From positions 1 to 64,000 of the forward strand of contig NW_027191476.1 in assembly GCF_011745625.1 (NCBI RefSeq): DNA of 64,000 nt, read 5' to 3'. Under the pieces are notes generated by a model. The model ran no database searches. It was not told where the DNA came from and worked only from the letters and a program-made list of their open reading frames with translations. The stretch comes from Cladosporium halotolerans (lineage: Eukaryota). Below are positions 11,419 through 57,839 of the stretch, piece by piece (position 1 is the first letter of the stretch; every line of letters begins with the position of its first letter). The position numbers and the translations under genes were made by a program.

Positions 11419-12172
11419 AATAGGGAGTCTGGGGAGAGAAATAGATACGAGAGGATGGGACGAAGGAAAACCCATGTCCTTGCATTTAGGCGTTTTCGGC
11501 AGGACTTTCGCGACTGCAAAGTGTACTCTGTTCTTTTGTTGTACATACTGAATTCGACGATGATACCAAAAACTACGACTTCGCTTTCACTTGACGTTGC
11601 AATTGATTCGGTAGTGCTGGGTTTGGATCATAAACCATGATGCGAAGGCGCAATGGCATTCATCAGTCCGGCAAATATTTGAATCAAACACGCTCGACAC
11701 GTAAAGCCCAGACAATACTATGGAATGACCTGGAGTCGCGCACTGTGTCCGGCACTGTTCTGGGCATGCTTCAATGGCTTCATTCCTTCCATTAATATCC
11801 TTGCTGTTGTGAGCGCATTGGTCGGCCGTCCCACCATTTTCGCCACGGCTCGGAAGTCCACCAGCAGAAGCTCGTGCGTTTCTGCCTTCGCAAGTTCTAA
11901 ACTTCCCCTCATCAATTCCACTATCACGCTTTTTCAAGCAATCTGACGATGTAACCTTGACTTGCCGATCTTAGGTCGTGCAGCCTTTTGCTTGCGGCAA
12001 CATGATTTCACCGCGCCTGCATCTGCGTGCGGGGCGATGGGTAATCATCTCCTCAATGGTAAAGGTAGTATTTGAAGTGGTCTCTTCCTCCGAAAACATC
12101 TGGGATGGAGACCTGCTTCTTTTTTCATAAAAATAGGACACGACAGTAAAGCCCGAGCTGGGTTATTTGGCC

Positions 12173-14836
12173 ATGACGCGCTTTGCTGCTGCCTTTTCGG
12201 CATCTTCAATTTTACTTTCTCTTAGTATACAGCCATCACATGCGCAAAACGCAACGAACATTCTCAGCTTCGTCGACCCCCTCATCGGCACGATCAATGG
12301 TGGACATGTGTTCGCCGGCGCCAGCTTGCCGTTCTCTATGGCCAAAGCCGTCGCGGATACCAACGGCGGAGAACTCCAAGGAGGCTTTGCGAGCGACGGG
12401 AGCAACATTACAGGCTTCAGCCACATGCACGACTCGGGAACCGGAGGTGTAAGTCTCTCACCGTTTTATTATTCGACAACATACCTTCGCTCGGTGCGGC
12501 TTGTGGTTTCCAAAGTGATGATCAACTTTAGACTCCTTGACTTAGATCTTCGGATCAATGAGGTGTTGATAGATGTTTGACTGACACCATTCCGTACCGA
12601 CTGCTTGCTCGTATTGTTGACAACCTACTGGGAACATTACTGACGCGCAGAACAAACAGTCTCCCTCCCTTGGAAATTTTCCCATCTTCGCTCAGGCAGG
12701 CTGTCCGGACGATGAGCTCAACAACTGTCTCTTCACAAAGACCGACCGCGCTACTCCTCGGATAAATGGCACGGTCGAGGCGAGCCCCGGCTACTTCGCC
12801 ATCGAGCTCGCATCGAGGGTTCGTGCGGAGATGACGGTTGCTAATCACACAGCATTATACCGCTTCACCTTTCCCGAGACCCCCGTCGAAGCCAACGCAC
12901 CCTTGAGCCCTCTGATTCTCGCCGATCTCTCGGACCTACCAGAATCCCGCATCAATGGATCCATCGCCGTCGACGAGCACACCGGCCGCATAACCGGCAG
13001 CGGCACATTCAGCCCAAGCTTTGGCATCGGCTCCTACACCCTGCACTTCTGCGCTGATTTCTCTGGCGCAGCCGTCCGCGACACAGGTGTCTTCATGAAC
13101 AACCGCGCCGGAAGTCAGCCCAAGAACCTCAGCGTGACTTCAGATGGCATCAACAACTCGCCGGAAATCTTGCCCGCCGGCGCCTGGACGCGCTTCAACG
13201 CATCGACTGAGATCCTCGCCCGTGTCGGCGTTAGTTTCATCTCCGTGGACCAAGCATGTTCCAACGCCGAGCGCGAGATACCGTCTTTCGACTTTCCCGC
13301 CACGCATTCCGCTGCTCGCGACGCCTGGACTTCCGCCCTGGACGTCGTGTCCATCAAACCCGGCGGGGCGAACTCCAGCCTACAAACGGTGTTCTGGTCC
13401 GGCCTCTACCGCGCCATGCTCTCGCCGCAAGACTACACGGGCGAGAACCCGCTGTGGTCAAGCGATGAGCCGTATTATGACTCATACTACTGTATTTGGG
13501 ACTCGTTCCGCAGCATCCACTCACTGATCACATTGGTAGACCCTGCAAGCCAGGCGCGTATGATCCGGAGTCTGATCGAGATCTACCGACAGGAAGGCTG
13601 GCTGCCAGACTGTAGGATGAGCTTGTGCAAGGGGTTCACGCAGGGCGGGTCGAATGCCGATGTAGTGTTGACGGAGTCGTACTTGAAGGGCATCAATGAC
13701 GGCATCGACTGGGAGACGGGATTCGAGGCTTTGCTGAAAGATGCAGAAGTAGAGCCGCCGAACTGGGCGGTTGAGGGGAGAGGCGGGTTGAAGAGTTGGA
13801 AGGAGTTGGGGTTCATCCCTACGGATGATTTTGATCCGTACGGTGTCGGGCCTTTTACAAGAAGCATCAGTCGTACGGTCGAGTATGCATATGACGACTT
13901 TTGCGTGGCGGAGATGGCGAGAGGGCTTGGCAGAACGGCCGAGTATGAGAAATATGTTGAGCGGTCGGAGTATTGGCGGTGAGTGGGCTTCAGGCGATTG
14001 ACCTGCCGATGGAGACGTTTATGCTGACTATATCTCGCAACAGCAACATGTATCAAGCGGACTCGACGAGCGCCATCAATGGGACAGACACGGGCTTCGT
14101 CGGCTTCCTGCAACCCAAGTTTCTCAATGGCACCTGGGGCTACCAAGACCCGATTTTTTGCTCTCCCCTGCTAAACTTCACTTCTTGCTACCTCAACCCT
14201 GACGGTCACGAAACCTACGAAGGCAGCTCATGGCTGTACACCTTCTACGTGCCGCATGATATGGCCAACCTGATCACGACCCTCGGCGGACCTGCAACCT
14301 TCACGAGACGGCTAGACTACTTCCACGAGTCTGGGTTGCTTTACATCGGCGACGAGCAGGGGTTTCTGGATGTCTTCCTGTACCACTACGCCGGAAGGCC
14401 AGCAAAGAGCGCCGAGCGCGCGCACTTCTACATCCCTTCGCAATTCAACGACACCGTGAACGGCATCCCAGGCAATGACGACAGCGGCGCGATGGGCTCG
14501 TTCGCGGCGCTGACGATGATGGGGATATTCCCTAACGCGGGCCAAGACGTGTATTTTATCACGCCGCCGTTCTTCGAGGAGGTCAGTTTGAGGAACAAGG
14601 ACACGGGCAAGACGGCGGTGATCAGGAATGTCGGGTTCGACGCGAGCTATGAGAGCATCTACGTGCAGAGCGCGACGCTGGATGGGAAGGCGTATACGAA
14701 GAATTGGATTGGGCACAGCTTCTTCAGGGACGGCGGAGTGCTGGAGCTGACGTTGGGACGGAACGAGAGCTCATGGGGAACGAGGGAGGAGGATCTCCCG
14801 CCCAGCCTGTCGACGAGAGGGCGAATGGGGTACTAG
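12173..14836 (+). CDS. Secreted GH92 alpha-1,2-mannosidase
   Basis: Signal peptide; VDPLIGT, GFSHMHDSGTGG|SPSLGNFP, WDSFRS, TQGGSNAD, SRTVEYAYDDF, PGNDDSGAM; introns 12449-12659 and 13979-14043. Confidence 0.95.
12505..12590 (+). ncRNA. Intronic box C/D snoRNA, predicted guide for the 25S rRNA region around yeast Cm663 (snR58/SNORD104-like)
   Basis: Box C GTGATGA 12515-12521; box D CTGA 12581-12584; internal GATC-TTCG-GATC hairpin. TTAGACTCCTTG (12528-12539) and ATAGATGTT (12569-12577) are antisense to the 25S segment CAAGGAGUCUAACAUCUAU (rRNA sequence recalled). Confidence 0.75.
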
Positions 14837-15682
14837 ACCACGTGGGTTTTGTGTTGCTGGGATGCGGCGGCATGTCGCAGGCTGGAGGTCGGTATGGCAC
14901 GTGAAACGCGGGTGAGGCGTTGTTCGCAGAAGCCGAGATGGCAGGCAGGCTGCAGGCAGGGTGGAACGTCTGATGAAACGGCGCGCTTGAAGAGGCGCCT
15001 TGTTCGCTGAGGTGCGCAAGTGATGTGCGCGTGCTTGCCGCATTGGTGCCTGCACGCCACGCCTTCCTCCTTTGCAGTACTGGGTTGCCATGCGTGCCTG
15101 AGGTTCCCTGCGTCTATACATGCTTCACTGTTGTGCCTGAGGCGGTGCGCCCTATACACGTCCATACCAGTACCTACCGCCAATTTCCATCTACCTAACA
15201 CCCCCTGAGCTGTTCGTCTCACCTCGCCTATTCCTATTATTCACGGCTTCTGCCCCTGGATGAACGATCAGCCGCCACGATGGCGATGTCAGCAATGCTG
15301 CACCACGAGGACGCCCAGCTGCGCAACGAACACGCCGTGAGCGGGCTCGAGGTACGTCTTCACACAACCCATGTTCTTTCTGCCGCTGCTTCACCTCCTC
15401 CTCGCCCTGGCCGTTTGACGGCCTGCCTCGCTGCCTCGCCGGCGCGCGCCATACCAACCCTCCCGCCCGCCAGCCAATCCCAGCCGTGCGCGCCGTAGCG
15501 TGTTCCGAACTTGCCCGCGGCCTGAGCGCTGCCCGTCAGAGCTCCCCCGGCTGCCCAGCGGCGCAAAACACGCCGCCCGCCCGCGCTCGACTTCCACCTC
15601 GTCCTCCTGTATATCGTCTTTTATTGACACCACCTCCTAGACCCATCCACCCCACCGCAGCCTCTTCAGCCGCATCACCACA

Positions 15683-17060
15683 ATGTCTTCCCCGCTCTCC
15701 TCCGACATCCCCAAGCCCTTCGGCAGCACCGAGAAGCTCGCCAAGGACGTCAACAAGGCCGTCGCCCTCCCCGTCCCGGCCTTCGGTGACCTCAGCAAGG
15801 CCGCCAACGACGTACGTATCGCCAATGTCTTCCGTCAGGTAATAGGGCCATGCGCTGACGATTCGCAAAGCTCATCAACAAGGACTTCTACCACACCGCC
15901 CAGGGTTAGCATGCGCAAACAGGTGGATCAAAAAACAGCAATGGCATACTGATGCGCGGATACAGCCACCCTTGATGTCAAGCTCAAGGCTCCCAACGGC
16001 ACCAACGTGACCGTCAAGGGCAAGCAGGGCTTCGACGGTGTCACCAGCGGCTCCGTGAGTTCCCACTGACAAACCCTCGTCTAAACCGAGCGCATGGCGG
16101 CTGACCAGCTATTCAACAGGTCGAGGGCAAGCACACTCTCAAGCCTCAAAGTACGCAAGACACCAATCCCCCTCCCCTTCCTTTACGGGATCGCAAGGGC
16201 TTCGTCAGCGCCATCATGTTCTCTACAGCGCTGCCGACGCCCTTGCGAATACCCACCTACATGTCTATCATGCACACACCCTCCAACAAAACCAACCATT
16301 CCACTCGACTCGTCCTAATGTGTCGACCTCGCACAGACGTCACCGTTACCCAGGCCTGGACCACCGCTTCCCTCCTCGACACCAAGGTCGAGCTCGCCAA
16401 CGTCGCCAGCACTGGCGTCAAGGTTGACCTCCAGAACCTCTGGAACCCCAGCAAGCCCAACAGCGCCGCCCAGAAGCTCAACCTCGCCTTCAAGAACCCT
16501 AACATCCACTCCCGCGCTTTCATCAACTACGGTCTTGCCAACGGCAACCTTGACGCCGTCCTTGACGTGACCGCCGGCCACGAGGGTTTCCTCGTCGGTG
16601 GTGAGGCTGGCTACGATGTCCAGAAGGCCGCCATCACCCGCTACTCCCTCGGTCTCGGCTACCAGGCCCCTACCTTCACCGCTTCCCTCGTCGGTAGCCA
16701 GAACCTGTCCGTCGCCGCCGCCTCCTACTACCAGAAGGTCAACTCCTCCGTCGAGGTCGGCGTCAAGGCCGCCTACGACGTCCAGAACGGCAAGCCCTCT
16801 GGCCTCGAGCTCGCCTCCAAGTACAAGCTTGACCCGCTCACCTTCGCCAAGGTAAGCTTGACCATCTCGTTTCGCAGAGCCATGCTCCATGCTAATCACT
16901 CGCAAAACAGGTCAAGGTCAACGACCGCGGTATCGCCGCCCTTGCCTACAGCACTAAGCTTAACGCCGGCACCACCCTCGGTCTCGGCCTTTCCCTCGAC
17001 ACTGCCAAGCTCAACGAGGCCGGCCACAAGATCGGCACTTCTCTCACTTTCGAGGGTTAA
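15683..17060 (+). CDS. POR1: Mitochondrial outer membrane porin (VDAC)
   Basis: VPAFGDLSKAAND|LINKDFYH, GFLVGGEAGYDVQKAAITRYS, KVNDRGIAALAY, GHKIGTSLTFEG; five introns; strong codon bias. Confidence 0.97.
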
Positions 17061-17304
17061 GTGTATGATACCCGAAAGAGCAGTTTGATGGAGGTGGTGA
17101 AGGATGGTGTGAGAGTGTACATTATGCTAGATGAGATAGCTTGCATGTGAATTGCATAGATTTTTCTCTACAGTATTCGCGATTGTGCAGGTCGATTATT
17201 GTCCTAGAATGATGCGGTAACATGAGCATGGCTTTGGATTCTCTTGTCGTCGAGAATTTGCTACGCCTGATATTTTACATAATCCTGCATTCACACATCT
17301 TACA

Positions 17305-17387
17305 GGTTCTATAGTGTAGCGGTTAGCACTTCGGATTCTGATTTCTTCGGCCTTCCGGCAACCCCGGTTCGATTCCGGGTAGGACCT
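17305..17387 (+). tRNA. tRNA-Gln (CUG) with short intron
   Basis: Acceptor GGTTCTA/TAGGACC; D arm TAGTGTAGCGGTTAGCAC; anticodon CTG at 17338-17340 followed by a ~11-nt intron; T arm CCCGGTTCGATTCCGGG; downstream T runs. Confidence 0.93.
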
Positions 17388-18002
17388 TTCCTTTTGCTCT
17401 TTCCCTGTTCCCTTTTTGTGCAAGGCCAAATATGATGTGGTCGCAGGTCATTAGTGCAATAAAAGTGTCTAGCCGTTTTACAAATTTGGCAAGATGGATG
17501 ACCCGCGCGTAGCGTCTTGCAAGCCATGAGCGAAAGCCTCCATGTGGCACCCATAGCGAGTCGACATTTGTATATCTGGGAAAAAGGTCTAGGATTGCTT
17601 CGTTGAAATACAAAATGATGACTATGACGTATATCTTTCACACAACGCTATCGATCATGGAGTTACCGACCGACATATTTCTCACACTTTCTTCAGAAGT
17701 ATCTCTGTCTGTTTTCAAAACAAAGCTCTGAGCTTTAGGCGCAATGCTCGAGGATACAGCGAGGTCGGGAGATGCTTTGGAGACAACCTCCTCCATTCAT
17801 TGACCATGCTGCTCGACTAGTCCAATACTTCGAAAGAGCGCCTAATGCAACTACATCTCTCGCAATCACCCCTGAGAAGGCTCGTAGCCTCGCTGGTAGG
17901 TTCAAAGTGAAATATGGCATTGCTTACTTGATTATTGAAAAAGAAGAAACGATGTATCTTATATCATAACAGTCTCATCTCAATTACTCATCAGTCCATC
18001 AA

Positions 18003-55742: not shown

Positions 55743-57839
55743 ATGGCTCCCGTCCCTCAATGGGTCCGTGACCTAAAGGTCCCCTCTGGCTCACAAGGCA
55801 CAGAACTCCTCACGCAGGAGCGCGCCAAATCAAATGTCGACGTCGACAGCGTTTCCAACTTCCTCTTCACCAAAGCCGGCCTGGAGAAGAAGCATGCCAT
55901 ACTTAAGATCCTCGAGGCCGAGAAGGTCTTCGACAAATCACAGAACTACTTCGCCGGCCGCGTCGACCGATTTGAGACGGCGCTCGCTCGTGCCAAAAAG
56001 CTGAGGCAATTGGAGGTGAAACACGGCTGGGAGATGCAGGAGAAGTCTATTGCCAACGAGCTCATCTCTGAGCCCGGTCCTTACGGTCTGCATGAGAGCA
56101 TGTTCTTGATCACGCTGAGAGATCAGGGCAATGCGGAGCAGCACGAGAAGTTCCTCAAGCCCGCACAGGCGTACAAGTACATAGGCTGCTACGCTCAGAC
56201 TGAATTGGGCCACGGCTCGAACGTAAGAGGATTGGAGACTACTGCTACATGGAACCCCGATGACAAGACCTTCACCATCCACTCGCCGCATCTCACAGCG
56301 TCAAAGTGGTGGATCGGATCTCTCGGCCGCACGGCCAACCACGCCGTCGTTATGGCCCAGCTCATCATGAACGGCAAGTCATTGGGTCCCCATCCCTTCG
56401 TGGTCCAGATTCGCGACCTTGAGACGCACCAGCCTCTGAAGGACATCCACATTGGTGACATCGGACCCAAGTTTGGCTACAACACCATGGACAACGGTTT
56501 CCTCCTCTTCAACCACGTCAAGGTTCCCCACATCAGCATGCTTGCACGTTTCTCCTCTATCGACCCCAAGACCAACAAGTATGTGCGTCCTGCCTCGCCA
56601 GCTCTCGTGTACGGCACCTTGACTTGGGTCCGCTCCAACATCGTCATGCAAGCCGGCGGCGTCCTCGCTCGTGGTGTCACCATCGCGACCCGCTACTGCT
56701 CTGTCCGCAAGCAGTTCCAGGACCGTGACGCACCCGAGTGGGAGCGCGGTGAGAACCAAGTCCTGAACTACACCATGGTCCAAATCCGTCTCCTCCCTCT
56801 GCTCGCTGCTACCTACGCTCTGCACTTCACCGGCAAGGGCATGATGTCGCTCTACAACGCCAACCAGAAGAAGATCGCCGCCGACGCCGGCAAGGCCGGC
56901 AGCCAACAAGGCCGTGGTGCAGGCCCCGAGGAGACCAACTCCAGCTCCGACCTCCTCGCCGACCTGCACGCCACCTCTTGCGGTCTCAAGTCCCTTGCCT
57001 CTTACACCGCCGTCGAAGGCCTCGAGATGTGCCGTCGTGCGTGCGGTGGCCACGGCTACTCCTCCTTCTCGGGCATCGGCCCGTGGTACTCCGACTACCT
57101 GCCGACTGCCACCTGGGAGGGTGACAACTACATGCTAACACAGCAAGTGGCACGCTACCTGCTCAAGACCGCACGCTCCGTGCTCAAGGGCAACGAGCCC
57201 ACCAACGACACCATGTCGATCCTGTCGAACTTCCTCTCCCGCCAGGACCAAGGCGCCGCCTTCGACGTGCTGGGCAACGACGCCGACCTCGTCAGCGCCT
57301 TCGCGTGGCGCTCCGCCTTCCTGACCTTCGAGGCCCTCCGCCACCGCGACGAGCAGAAGCGCGCGTGGAACAGCCTTCTGGTCGACTTCTATCGCCTCAG
57401 CCGCGCGCACAGCCAGTACATGGTGGTGAAGAACTTCTACGAAACCCTTCAGTCCCCCTCGTCCTCCTCCGACCTCAACCCCGAGACGCTCGCGGTCATG
57501 CACAAGCTCTTCCGCCTGTACGCGCTGCACACGCTCGAGCAAGAAGCGAGCGAGTTTTACACCTCGTCCGCCGTGACCGTCCGCCAGATCCAGCTGGCGC
57601 GCACGAGCAGCGTGATGAAGCTTCTCGAGGAGGTGCGCCCGCACGCCGTGCGCCTCGTCGACGCCTGGGACTTCCCCGACTGGCAGCTGGACAGCTCGCT
57701 TGGCCGCAAAGACGGAAAGGTGTACGAGGACATGTTCTACCGCGCGAGCGAGCTGAACCCGCTGAACGACATCGTCGTCGACCCCTATCCGGAGAGTCCG
57801 GTGCTGTTCAAGAGCCGGGAGCCGAAGAGCAAGTTGTAG
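55743..57839 (+). CDS. POX1: Peroxisomal acyl-CoA oxidase
   Basis: GCYAQTELGHGSNV, KWWIG, GDIGPKFG, CRRACGGHGY, TWEGDN; C-terminal PTS1 SKL. Confidence 0.97.
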   Translation: MAPVPQWVRDLKVPSGSQGTELLTQERAKSNVDVDSVSNFLFTKAGLEKKHAILKILEAEKVFDKSQNYFAGRVDRFETALARAKKLRQLEVKHGWEMQEKSIANELISEPGPYGLHESMFLITLRDQGNAEQHEKFLKPAQAYKYIGCYAQTELGHGSNVRGLETTATWNPDDKTFTIHSPHLTASKWWIGSLGRTANHAVVMAQLIMNGKSLGPHPFVVQIRDLETHQPLKDIHIGDIGPKFGYNTMDNGFLLFNHVKVPHISMLARFSSIDPKTNKYVRPASPALVYGTLTWVRSNIVMQAGGVLARGVTIATRYCSVRKQFQDRDAPEWERGENQVLNYTMVQIRLLPLLAATYALHFTGKGMMSLYNANQKKIAADAGKAGSQQGRGAGPEETNSSSDLLADLHATSCGLKSLASYTAVEGLEMCRRACGGHGYSSFSGIGPWYSDYLPTATWEGDNYMLTQQVARYLLKTARSVLKGNEPTNDTMSILSNFLSRQDQGAAFDVLGNDADLVSAFAWRSAFLTFEALRHRDEQKRAWNSLLVDFYRLSRAHSQYMVVKNFYETLQSPSSSSDLNPETLAVMHKLFRLYALHTLEQEASEFYTSSAVTVRQIQLARTSSVMKLLEEVRPHAVRLVDAWDFPDWQLDSSLGRKDGKVYEDMFYRASELNPLNDIVVDPYPESPVLFKSREPKSKL

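Follow-up and report, generated by a model that had tools for sequence, protein, structure and literature searches.

The first intron of a GH92 gene of Cladosporium halotolerans is predicted to encode a box C/D small nucleolar RNA (snoRNA) of about 80 to 88 nt (approximately positions 12503-12590), which would guide methylation of the residue equivalent to yeast 25S ribosomal RNA (rRNA) C663 in the manner of yeast snR58, and which would have been placed in this intron recently. The window analyzed comprises the first 64,000 nucleotides of contig NW_027191476.1 (assembly GCF_011745625.1); positions are those of the window, and all features of the gene and of the candidate lie on the forward strand. 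An acyl-CoA oxidase encoded elsewhere in the window (55743-57836) shares 90% identity with a Cladosporium allicinum protein, which places the organism among the dothideomycetes near Cladosporiaceae. The probability of this reading as a whole is put at roughly 60%. As judged from sequence, the candidate is probably genuine: a box C/D snoRNA that would belong by function with snR58 and SNORD104 and that combines a split guide with a young, atypical host. An earlier inspection of the DNA letters (the sequence-only reading) had proposed a snoRNA at this place, and its outline was borne out: all features of the 211-nt intron were found where it had placed them, the splice joint is present in a transcript contig, and sequence and Pfam comparisons agree with its description of the box C/D parts and of GH92 as the host.

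Intron 1 (12449-12659) contains a box C, GUGAUGA (12515-12521), that matches the RUGAUGA consensus (PMC2780460) perfectly, and a perfect box D, CUGA (12581-12584), 59 nt apart and in sense orientation. Between them follow a 6-nt spacer (12522-12527), an antisense element in the D' slot (12528-12539; TTAGACTCC(TTG), in full TTAGACTCCTTG), a box D' read as CUUGA (12536-12540) by eye against the yeast variants CTGA, CCGA and CCTA, a GAUC-UUCG-GAUC hairpin apparent in both sequence and fold (12545-12556), a candidate box C', AUGAGGU (12558-12564), and a second antisense element in the D slot (ATAGATGTTTGA, 12569-12580). The C' candidate, also identified by eye, agrees with RUGAUGA at five of seven positions; in yeast snR58 rows, TTGAGGA and ATGGAAGA stand at the corresponding place.

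The sequence-only reading had noticed that the boxes are flanked by complementary TGGT (12504-12507) and ACCA (12586-12589). This pairing is present, but the closing stem is far longer than it implied and bipartite: a 5-bp terminal stem (GUGGU, 12503-12507, with ACCAU, 12586-12590) is continued by a 9- to 11-bp external stem (12491-12499 with 12592-12600, and two extra pairs between 12489-12490 and 12603-12604), giving 14 to 16 bp in all, in the minimum free energy fold as well as the centroid fold. The fold of 12486-12606 has an energy of -35.3 kcal/mol, compared with -28.0 +/- 3.7 kcal/mol for shuffled sequences (z = -1.95), and 7 of 200 shuffles were as stable. The candidate has the sequence features of the box C/D class, namely boxes C and D, a terminal stem and, directly upstream of D and D', antisense elements of the kind that in this class span about 10 nt or more and place the target at position 5. 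Its start lies about 55 to 60 nt downstream of the 5' splice site, within the 41 to 60 nt reported as customary for intronic snoRNAs of Neurospora crassa, and its end about 70 nt ahead of the 3' splice site. Box D had been described as lying about 55 to 60 nt before the branch site; the measured distance to the branch A (12643) of the branch-site-like TACTGAC (12638-12644) is 59 nt, and this A is 16 nt ahead of the 3' splice site. The G+C content is 39.5% in the candidate (12504-12589), 48% in the remainder of intron 1 and about 55% in the surrounding windows.

Both antisense elements are complementary to a single rRNA segment, as had been claimed. The target sequences were fungal large subunit (LSU) rRNA fragments (L001-L009) found in prokaryotic assemblies and derived from fungi other than the window organism. 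The 12 nt of 12528-12539 are, as reverse complement, identical to L008 LSU 652-663 (yeast-equivalent 655-666), those of 12569-12577 form a perfect 9-mer at L008 LSU 662-670, and the complete D-slot element pairs at 11 of its 12 positions with yeast-equivalent 662-673. The two targets overlap by 2 nt, and the joint 19-nt target is identical in all nine fragments. These fragments lie on contigs of prokaryotic genomes or metagenome-assembled genomes (MAGs), for example Motilimonas pumila, Arthrobacter globiformis and Erythrobacter MAGs; the nine contigs look like contamination of those assemblies, three of three tested with Rfam being eukaryotic LSU (1848-2104 bits).

The 25S segment that spans the equivalents of U662, C663 and A666 is CAAGGAGUCUAACAUCUAU. 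The alignment of snR58 with its target, labelled L663, in the supplement of van Nues et al. (PMC3116282) shows that C663 corresponds to the C that comes first in GAGUCUAAC, which is L008 C660. With C663 anchored there, the partner of the C663 equivalent is G12531 and that of the A666 equivalent is T12576. When D' is read as CUUG(A) from 12536, the residue at +5 is C663, as in yeast, and a scan of LSU 1-2175 and 5.8S rRNA places the best duplex of the D'-slot element at this predicted site (-19.4 kcal/mol, compared with -15.9 kcal/mol at the next site). T12576 is position +5 from box D and lies opposite the A666 equivalent, so the count from box D in the sequence-only reading was right on the van Nues numbering. 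That reading had taken the box D guide for the principal one and had deduced a "shifted" methylation site from it, a view that is not upheld here: the 5' element corresponds to a D'-slot guide of the snR58 type.

The link to yeast Cm663 and snR58 that had been drawn earlier agrees with published lists, as the van Nues supplement labels snR58 as L663 and its human counterpart SNORD104 is listed for 28S C1327. The candidate resembles yeast snR58 in addressing the same rRNA segment with a guide upstream of D' and with the core TTAGACT. Its canonical boxes C and D likewise have counterparts in yeast snR58, and the arrangement of a degenerate D', a hairpin and a C' after the guide recurs in every one of the 26 yeast snR58 rows of the alignment; a degenerate D' is evidently tolerated, since CTGA, CCGA and CCTA occur among these rows. 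The guide of yeast snR58 is given in the same supplement as (T/C)AGACGTTAGACTT followed by D'. It extends 5'-wards to about 12 to 13 bp, whereas the D' slot of the candidate lacks that 5' half, and the rRNA stretch of the missing half is covered instead by the box D-slot element. Yeast snR58, unlike the candidate, does not reside in a GH92 intron. What the two share by eye amounts to the boxes and the 7-nt guide core, and Rfam finds no similarity at the level of a family profile.

The combination of motifs in intron 1 is rare. The window contains 15 pairs of RTGATGA and CTGA spaced 50 to 125 nt apart, counting both strands. A 9-mer complement of LSU or 5.8S rRNA occurs in either guide slot of one of these 15 pairs, namely the pair in intron 1, which has such a complement in both slots, with both on one 19-nt rRNA segment. 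The combined motif pattern has a single occurrence in the window and none in 100 shuffles. Among 200 block shuffles one gave a pair with both slots matched, in a count that also accepted hits on different segments and pairs lacking a 12-mer. The number of C..D pairs in the window itself exceeds that of the 200 block shuffles (mean 3.2, maximum 11), an excess that may be codon-related.

The host gene consists of three exons: exon 1 (12173-12448) starts with the ATG at 12173 and ends in ...HDSGTGG, exon 2 spans 12660-13978, and exon 3 (14044-14836) extends to the stop codon at the end of the open reading frame. Exon 1 matches positions 1-61 of Pfam Glyco_hydro_92N (E = 3.2e-22), exon 2 matches positions 63-236 of that profile and 1-238 of the GH92 catalytic profile, and exon 3 matches positions 240-463 of the latter; profile position 61 closes exon 1 and position 63 opens exon 2. 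Read by eye, the N-terminus (MTRFAAAFSASSILLSLSIQPSHAQ) resembles a signal peptide, which is the basis for describing the mannosidase as secreted. Intron 1 is a phase 0 intron that begins with GTAAGT at 12449 and ends with CAG up to 12659. In one contig of RNA run X14, 12448 is joined directly to 12660, which skips exactly 211 nt with GT..AG borders; this contig differs from the window at four positions over its exon 1 piece (12152-12448). The GH92 gene is thus transcribed and its intron 1 removed, in a close relative or in the same species. The four RNA runs used consist of spliced contigs over exon parts, none of which covers intron sequence, and are uninformative about the snoRNA itself.

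Records 7 and 9 of run X14 represent a second GH92 transcript, with about 81 to 82% identity over 12252-12448 and 12744-12867. Its upstream piece stops at 12448 and is followed by exon-2-like sequence, so the same exon 1/2 boundary is spliced; the transcript stems either from a paralogue or from another species in that run. The unusual length of intron 1 had been judged against other introns of about 50 to 65 nt, and the comparison holds for the one other intron that was measured, intron 2 of the same gene (13979-14043, delimited by the reading frame), which has 65 nt. No inverted repeat was found in intron 1 from a 6-nt seed, no further copy of the intron exists within the 64-kb window, and its sequence shows neither a poly(A) tract nor direct or other repeats. 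A scan of 12400-12700 for promoters and terminators of the bacterial type returned none of either, which is uninformative for a eukaryote.

Several observations weigh against the presence of an snR58-type guide in this intron, and some of them lie in the candidate itself. The terminal stem does not abut box C, from which 7 unpaired nt separate it on the 5' side, and box D' is degenerate. Because D' has one extra U relative to yeast snR58, its register is ambiguous by one nucleotide: if D' is read as UUGA (12537-12540), which keeps the GA, the residue at +5 is U662 and C663 falls at +6. The D'-slot duplex upstream of D' has just 8 to 9 bp (12 bp when the bases of D' are counted). The D-slot duplex on its own reaches -11.6 kcal/mol and ranks fourth among the sites listed in the scan of LSU 1-2175 and 5.8S rRNA, and the D-slot element has a U-U mismatch at its position 3.

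The comparative data point in the same direction. The sequence-only reading had named beforehand a lack of conservation in orthologous introns as one of the findings that would refute it, and a lack of conservation was found. Relatives were collected by a protein search with exon 2, from which 80 of 559 were kept; 33 of the 80, with a match that starts near residue 1 and a fungal appearance, were examined. The HD[ST]GTGG end of exon 1 is present in 31 of these 33 loci, of which 15 have an intron of 48 to 323 nt at the site of intron 1 and 16 have none at this site. No box C..D pair and no guide element occurs in any of the 15 homologous introns, where the single RTGATGA lies at the end of a 54-nt intron (L026). 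The locus with 88% amino-acid and about 78% nucleotide identity (L010) also matches the window downstream of the gene (15676-16540), which identifies it as a syntenic orthologue; it lacks a snoRNA element, and so do two further relatives with 84 to 85% amino-acid identity. The introns of L010 (about 103 nt), L022 (about 156 nt) and L038 (about 124 nt) align with the window at splice sites and exons only. The two-guide pattern had no match in the metagenome_contigs collection, though relatives of the fungus are present there, and none in viral_contigs. The element is thus restricted at this location to the lineage of the window organism. Associations between snoRNAs and their hosts are known to be unstable, a behavior described as "constrained drift" (PMC3511168), and a genuine snoRNA can sit elsewhere in the genomes of the relatives.

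Matches of 8 to 9 nt to the guides were found in 8 of the 80 GH92 loci, one isolated match in each; they represent seven distinct contexts (L017 and L018 being the same) without boxes and were rejected. The first introns of the closest relatives (L010:424-527, L022:366-521 and L038:898-1021; about 103 to 156 nt) are longer than the other introns seen (48-65 nt) and contain no snoRNA-like motif. The extended length of the first intron may be older than the snoRNA. Five GH92 homologues with 71 to 72% identity (L033-L037, for example L035:2178-2500) have an intron of 316 to 323 nt at the same site without TGATGA; these long introns begin with GCAAGT in L033, L035, L036 and L037 and with GTAAGA in L034.

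Family searches likewise gave no support. In the whole window, the sole Rfam match at gathering thresholds is a tRNA. At E <= 10, the region 12440-12670 matched four generic C/D families with 9.7 to 18.7 bits, compared with thresholds of 40 to 50; the best of these was snR54 (18.7 bits against a gathering threshold of 50, E = 2.2), and no family for the C663 target appeared even at this permissive setting. The Rfam match looked for after the sequence-only reading is therefore absent, at threshold and, for the target, up to E <= 10. Rfam at gathering threshold also returned nothing for L010, L011, L012, L022, L034, L035 and L038, including the 316- to 323-nt introns of L034 and L035. The tRNA match is a tRNA-Gln (CTG) gene at 17304-17388 on the forward strand, predicted by ARAGORN and scoring 51.2 bits in Rfam, whose anticodon is followed by an intron-like insert of about 13 nt.

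The snR58 alignment of van Nues et al. (PMC3116282) comprises 26 Saccharomycotina rows and no Pezizomycotina, though Pezizomycotina genomes were included in the iterative blastn search. The snoRNA table for N. crassa (PMC2780460) gives U18 at 26S-A635 and nothing for the site 14 nt downstream, and the table for Aspergillus fumigatus gives nothing near the C663 site. In the snoStrip survey of Canzler et al. 2018 (PMC5824354), the snR58 family is designated CD_68 and is reported as lacking in Sordariomycetes. Homologues of snR58 from fungi in general are assigned to CD_68.

Explanations of a real snoRNA diverge on the role of the D-slot element. Pairing outside the guide by a second, conserved antisense element that adjoins the methylation site, and sometimes overlaps the guide target by 1 to 2 nt, is described by van Nues et al. 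(PMC3116282); in their account such extra base-pairing is found above all among snoRNAs with the shortest guides and can raise methylation as much as five-fold. The second antisense element of the candidate likewise adjoins the target with a 2-nt overlap, and with a D' duplex of just 8 to 9 bp, extra base-pairing would fit. The earlier suggestion that one element acts as accessory pairing is consistent with this adjacency and overlap. Unlike the extra elements described there, however, that of the candidate fills the entire canonical guide slot of box D. Since its position 5 is paired, it could itself be catalytic, and the candidate would then be a true double guide directing two methylations three nucleotides apart, one on the C663 equivalent through D' and one on a new, lineage-specific site, the A666 equivalent, through box D. 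The exact guide position of the element, with 11 of 12 nucleotides paired and position 5 opposite A666, favors such an arrangement, and a precedent is provided by the N. crassa snoRNAs CD32 (18S Am161 by D and Um167 by D') and CD28 (26S Am1845 and Am1859; PMC2780460), in each of which one intronic snoRNA directs D and D' guides to one short rRNA stretch. The sites of CD32 and CD28 are 6 and 14 nt apart, however, and their duplexes need not overlap, whereas the two duplexes of the candidate share 2 nt and cannot both form fully on one rRNA molecule. The duplex at A666 is weak and AU-rich and contains the mismatch at position 3, the site has no guide in the N. crassa and A. fumigatus tables, and a limited literature search found no methylation map for this fungal group. 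A double guide is regarded as unlikely, and extra base-pairing around an snR58-type D' guide is the preferred explanation.

Two further explanations question whether the intron harbors an established snoRNA gene. The candidate might be a young or decaying copy of a snoRNA gene located elsewhere in the genome, a paralogue inserted not long ago that may be processed but would be redundant or on the way to being lost. Its absence from all 15 homologous introns, including that of the syntenic orthologue, would fit this origin, as would the degenerate D' with its short guide and a host that is not a typical broadly expressed gene; but boxes C and D, the 14 to 16 bp of closing stems and both rRNA-complementary elements are intact, and the intron shows no repeats or poly(A) tract. 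This origin is rated as rather improbable. It is more doubtful still that the intron is an ordinary long one in which the motifs occur by chance and from which no RNA product arises, even though the same lack of conservation, the lack of an Rfam match and the abundance of C..D pairs in the window are what such an intron would present. Chance is deemed unlikely because of the motif counts together with the stems, the sense orientation within the intron and the snR58-like middle part: perfect boxes, complements of 12 and 9 nt on one 19-nt segment and closing stems rarely occur jointly, the D'-hairpin-C' layout is that of snR58, the distances to both splice sites are typical, and shuffled sequences yielded no instance of the full pattern and one of its relaxed form.

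From the observed anatomy, complementarity and splicing, a sequence of events can be inferred for the snR58-type guide. The snoRNA would be transcribed within the GH92 pre-mRNA, and boxes C and D would be brought together in a C/D kink-turn by the 5-bp terminal and the 9- to 11-bp external stem. Core proteins would bind, and exonucleolytic trimming would free the snoRNA from the spliced intron. The D'-slot guide (TTAGACTCC) would then pair with 25S rRNA and direct 2'-O-methylation of the Nop1 type at +5 from D', on the C663 equivalent, as snR58 and SNORD104 do, while the box D-slot element (ATAGATGTT) would pair with the rRNA immediately 3' of it, with the overlap of 2 nt. The latter pairing would most likely stabilize the short D' duplex as extra base-pairing; alternatively or additionally, it may guide methylation of the A666 equivalent. 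The snoRNA may have reached the GH92 intron recently, or may have been lost from the introns of relatives, either of which would fit the known mobility of snoRNA genes. The sequence-only reading had stressed the unusual host. GH92 is indeed not a typical one, but it is less surprising than was claimed because snoRNA-host associations drift. A bolder proposal, to which very little probability is attached, holds that no guide other than the candidate serves the C663 equivalent, or a new A666 site, in this fungus and that it is made only when the GH92 gene, a carbohydrate-scavenging gene, is transcribed; methylation of this 25S helix would then vary with nutritional state. If that were true, the guide tied to GH92 would be a natural case of condition-dependent ribosome modification arising from a recent snoRNA relocation.

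The known workings of box C/D snoRNAs are left unchanged by the candidate, and for annotation purposes the snoRNA would explain why intron 1 is three times as long as the neighboring intron. If the snoRNA is real, it would add a guide from a filamentous fungus for a methylation site that has been conserved between yeast and humans; the lists for N. crassa and A. fumigatus contain no such guide, and the iterative blastn survey none outside Saccharomycotina. It would also represent a long guide that has been split into a short catalytic guide and an extra base-pairing element. Finally, a snoRNA in the intron of a lineage-restricted host that is not a housekeeping gene would bear on the "constrained drift" view of how snoRNAs and their hosts are associated.

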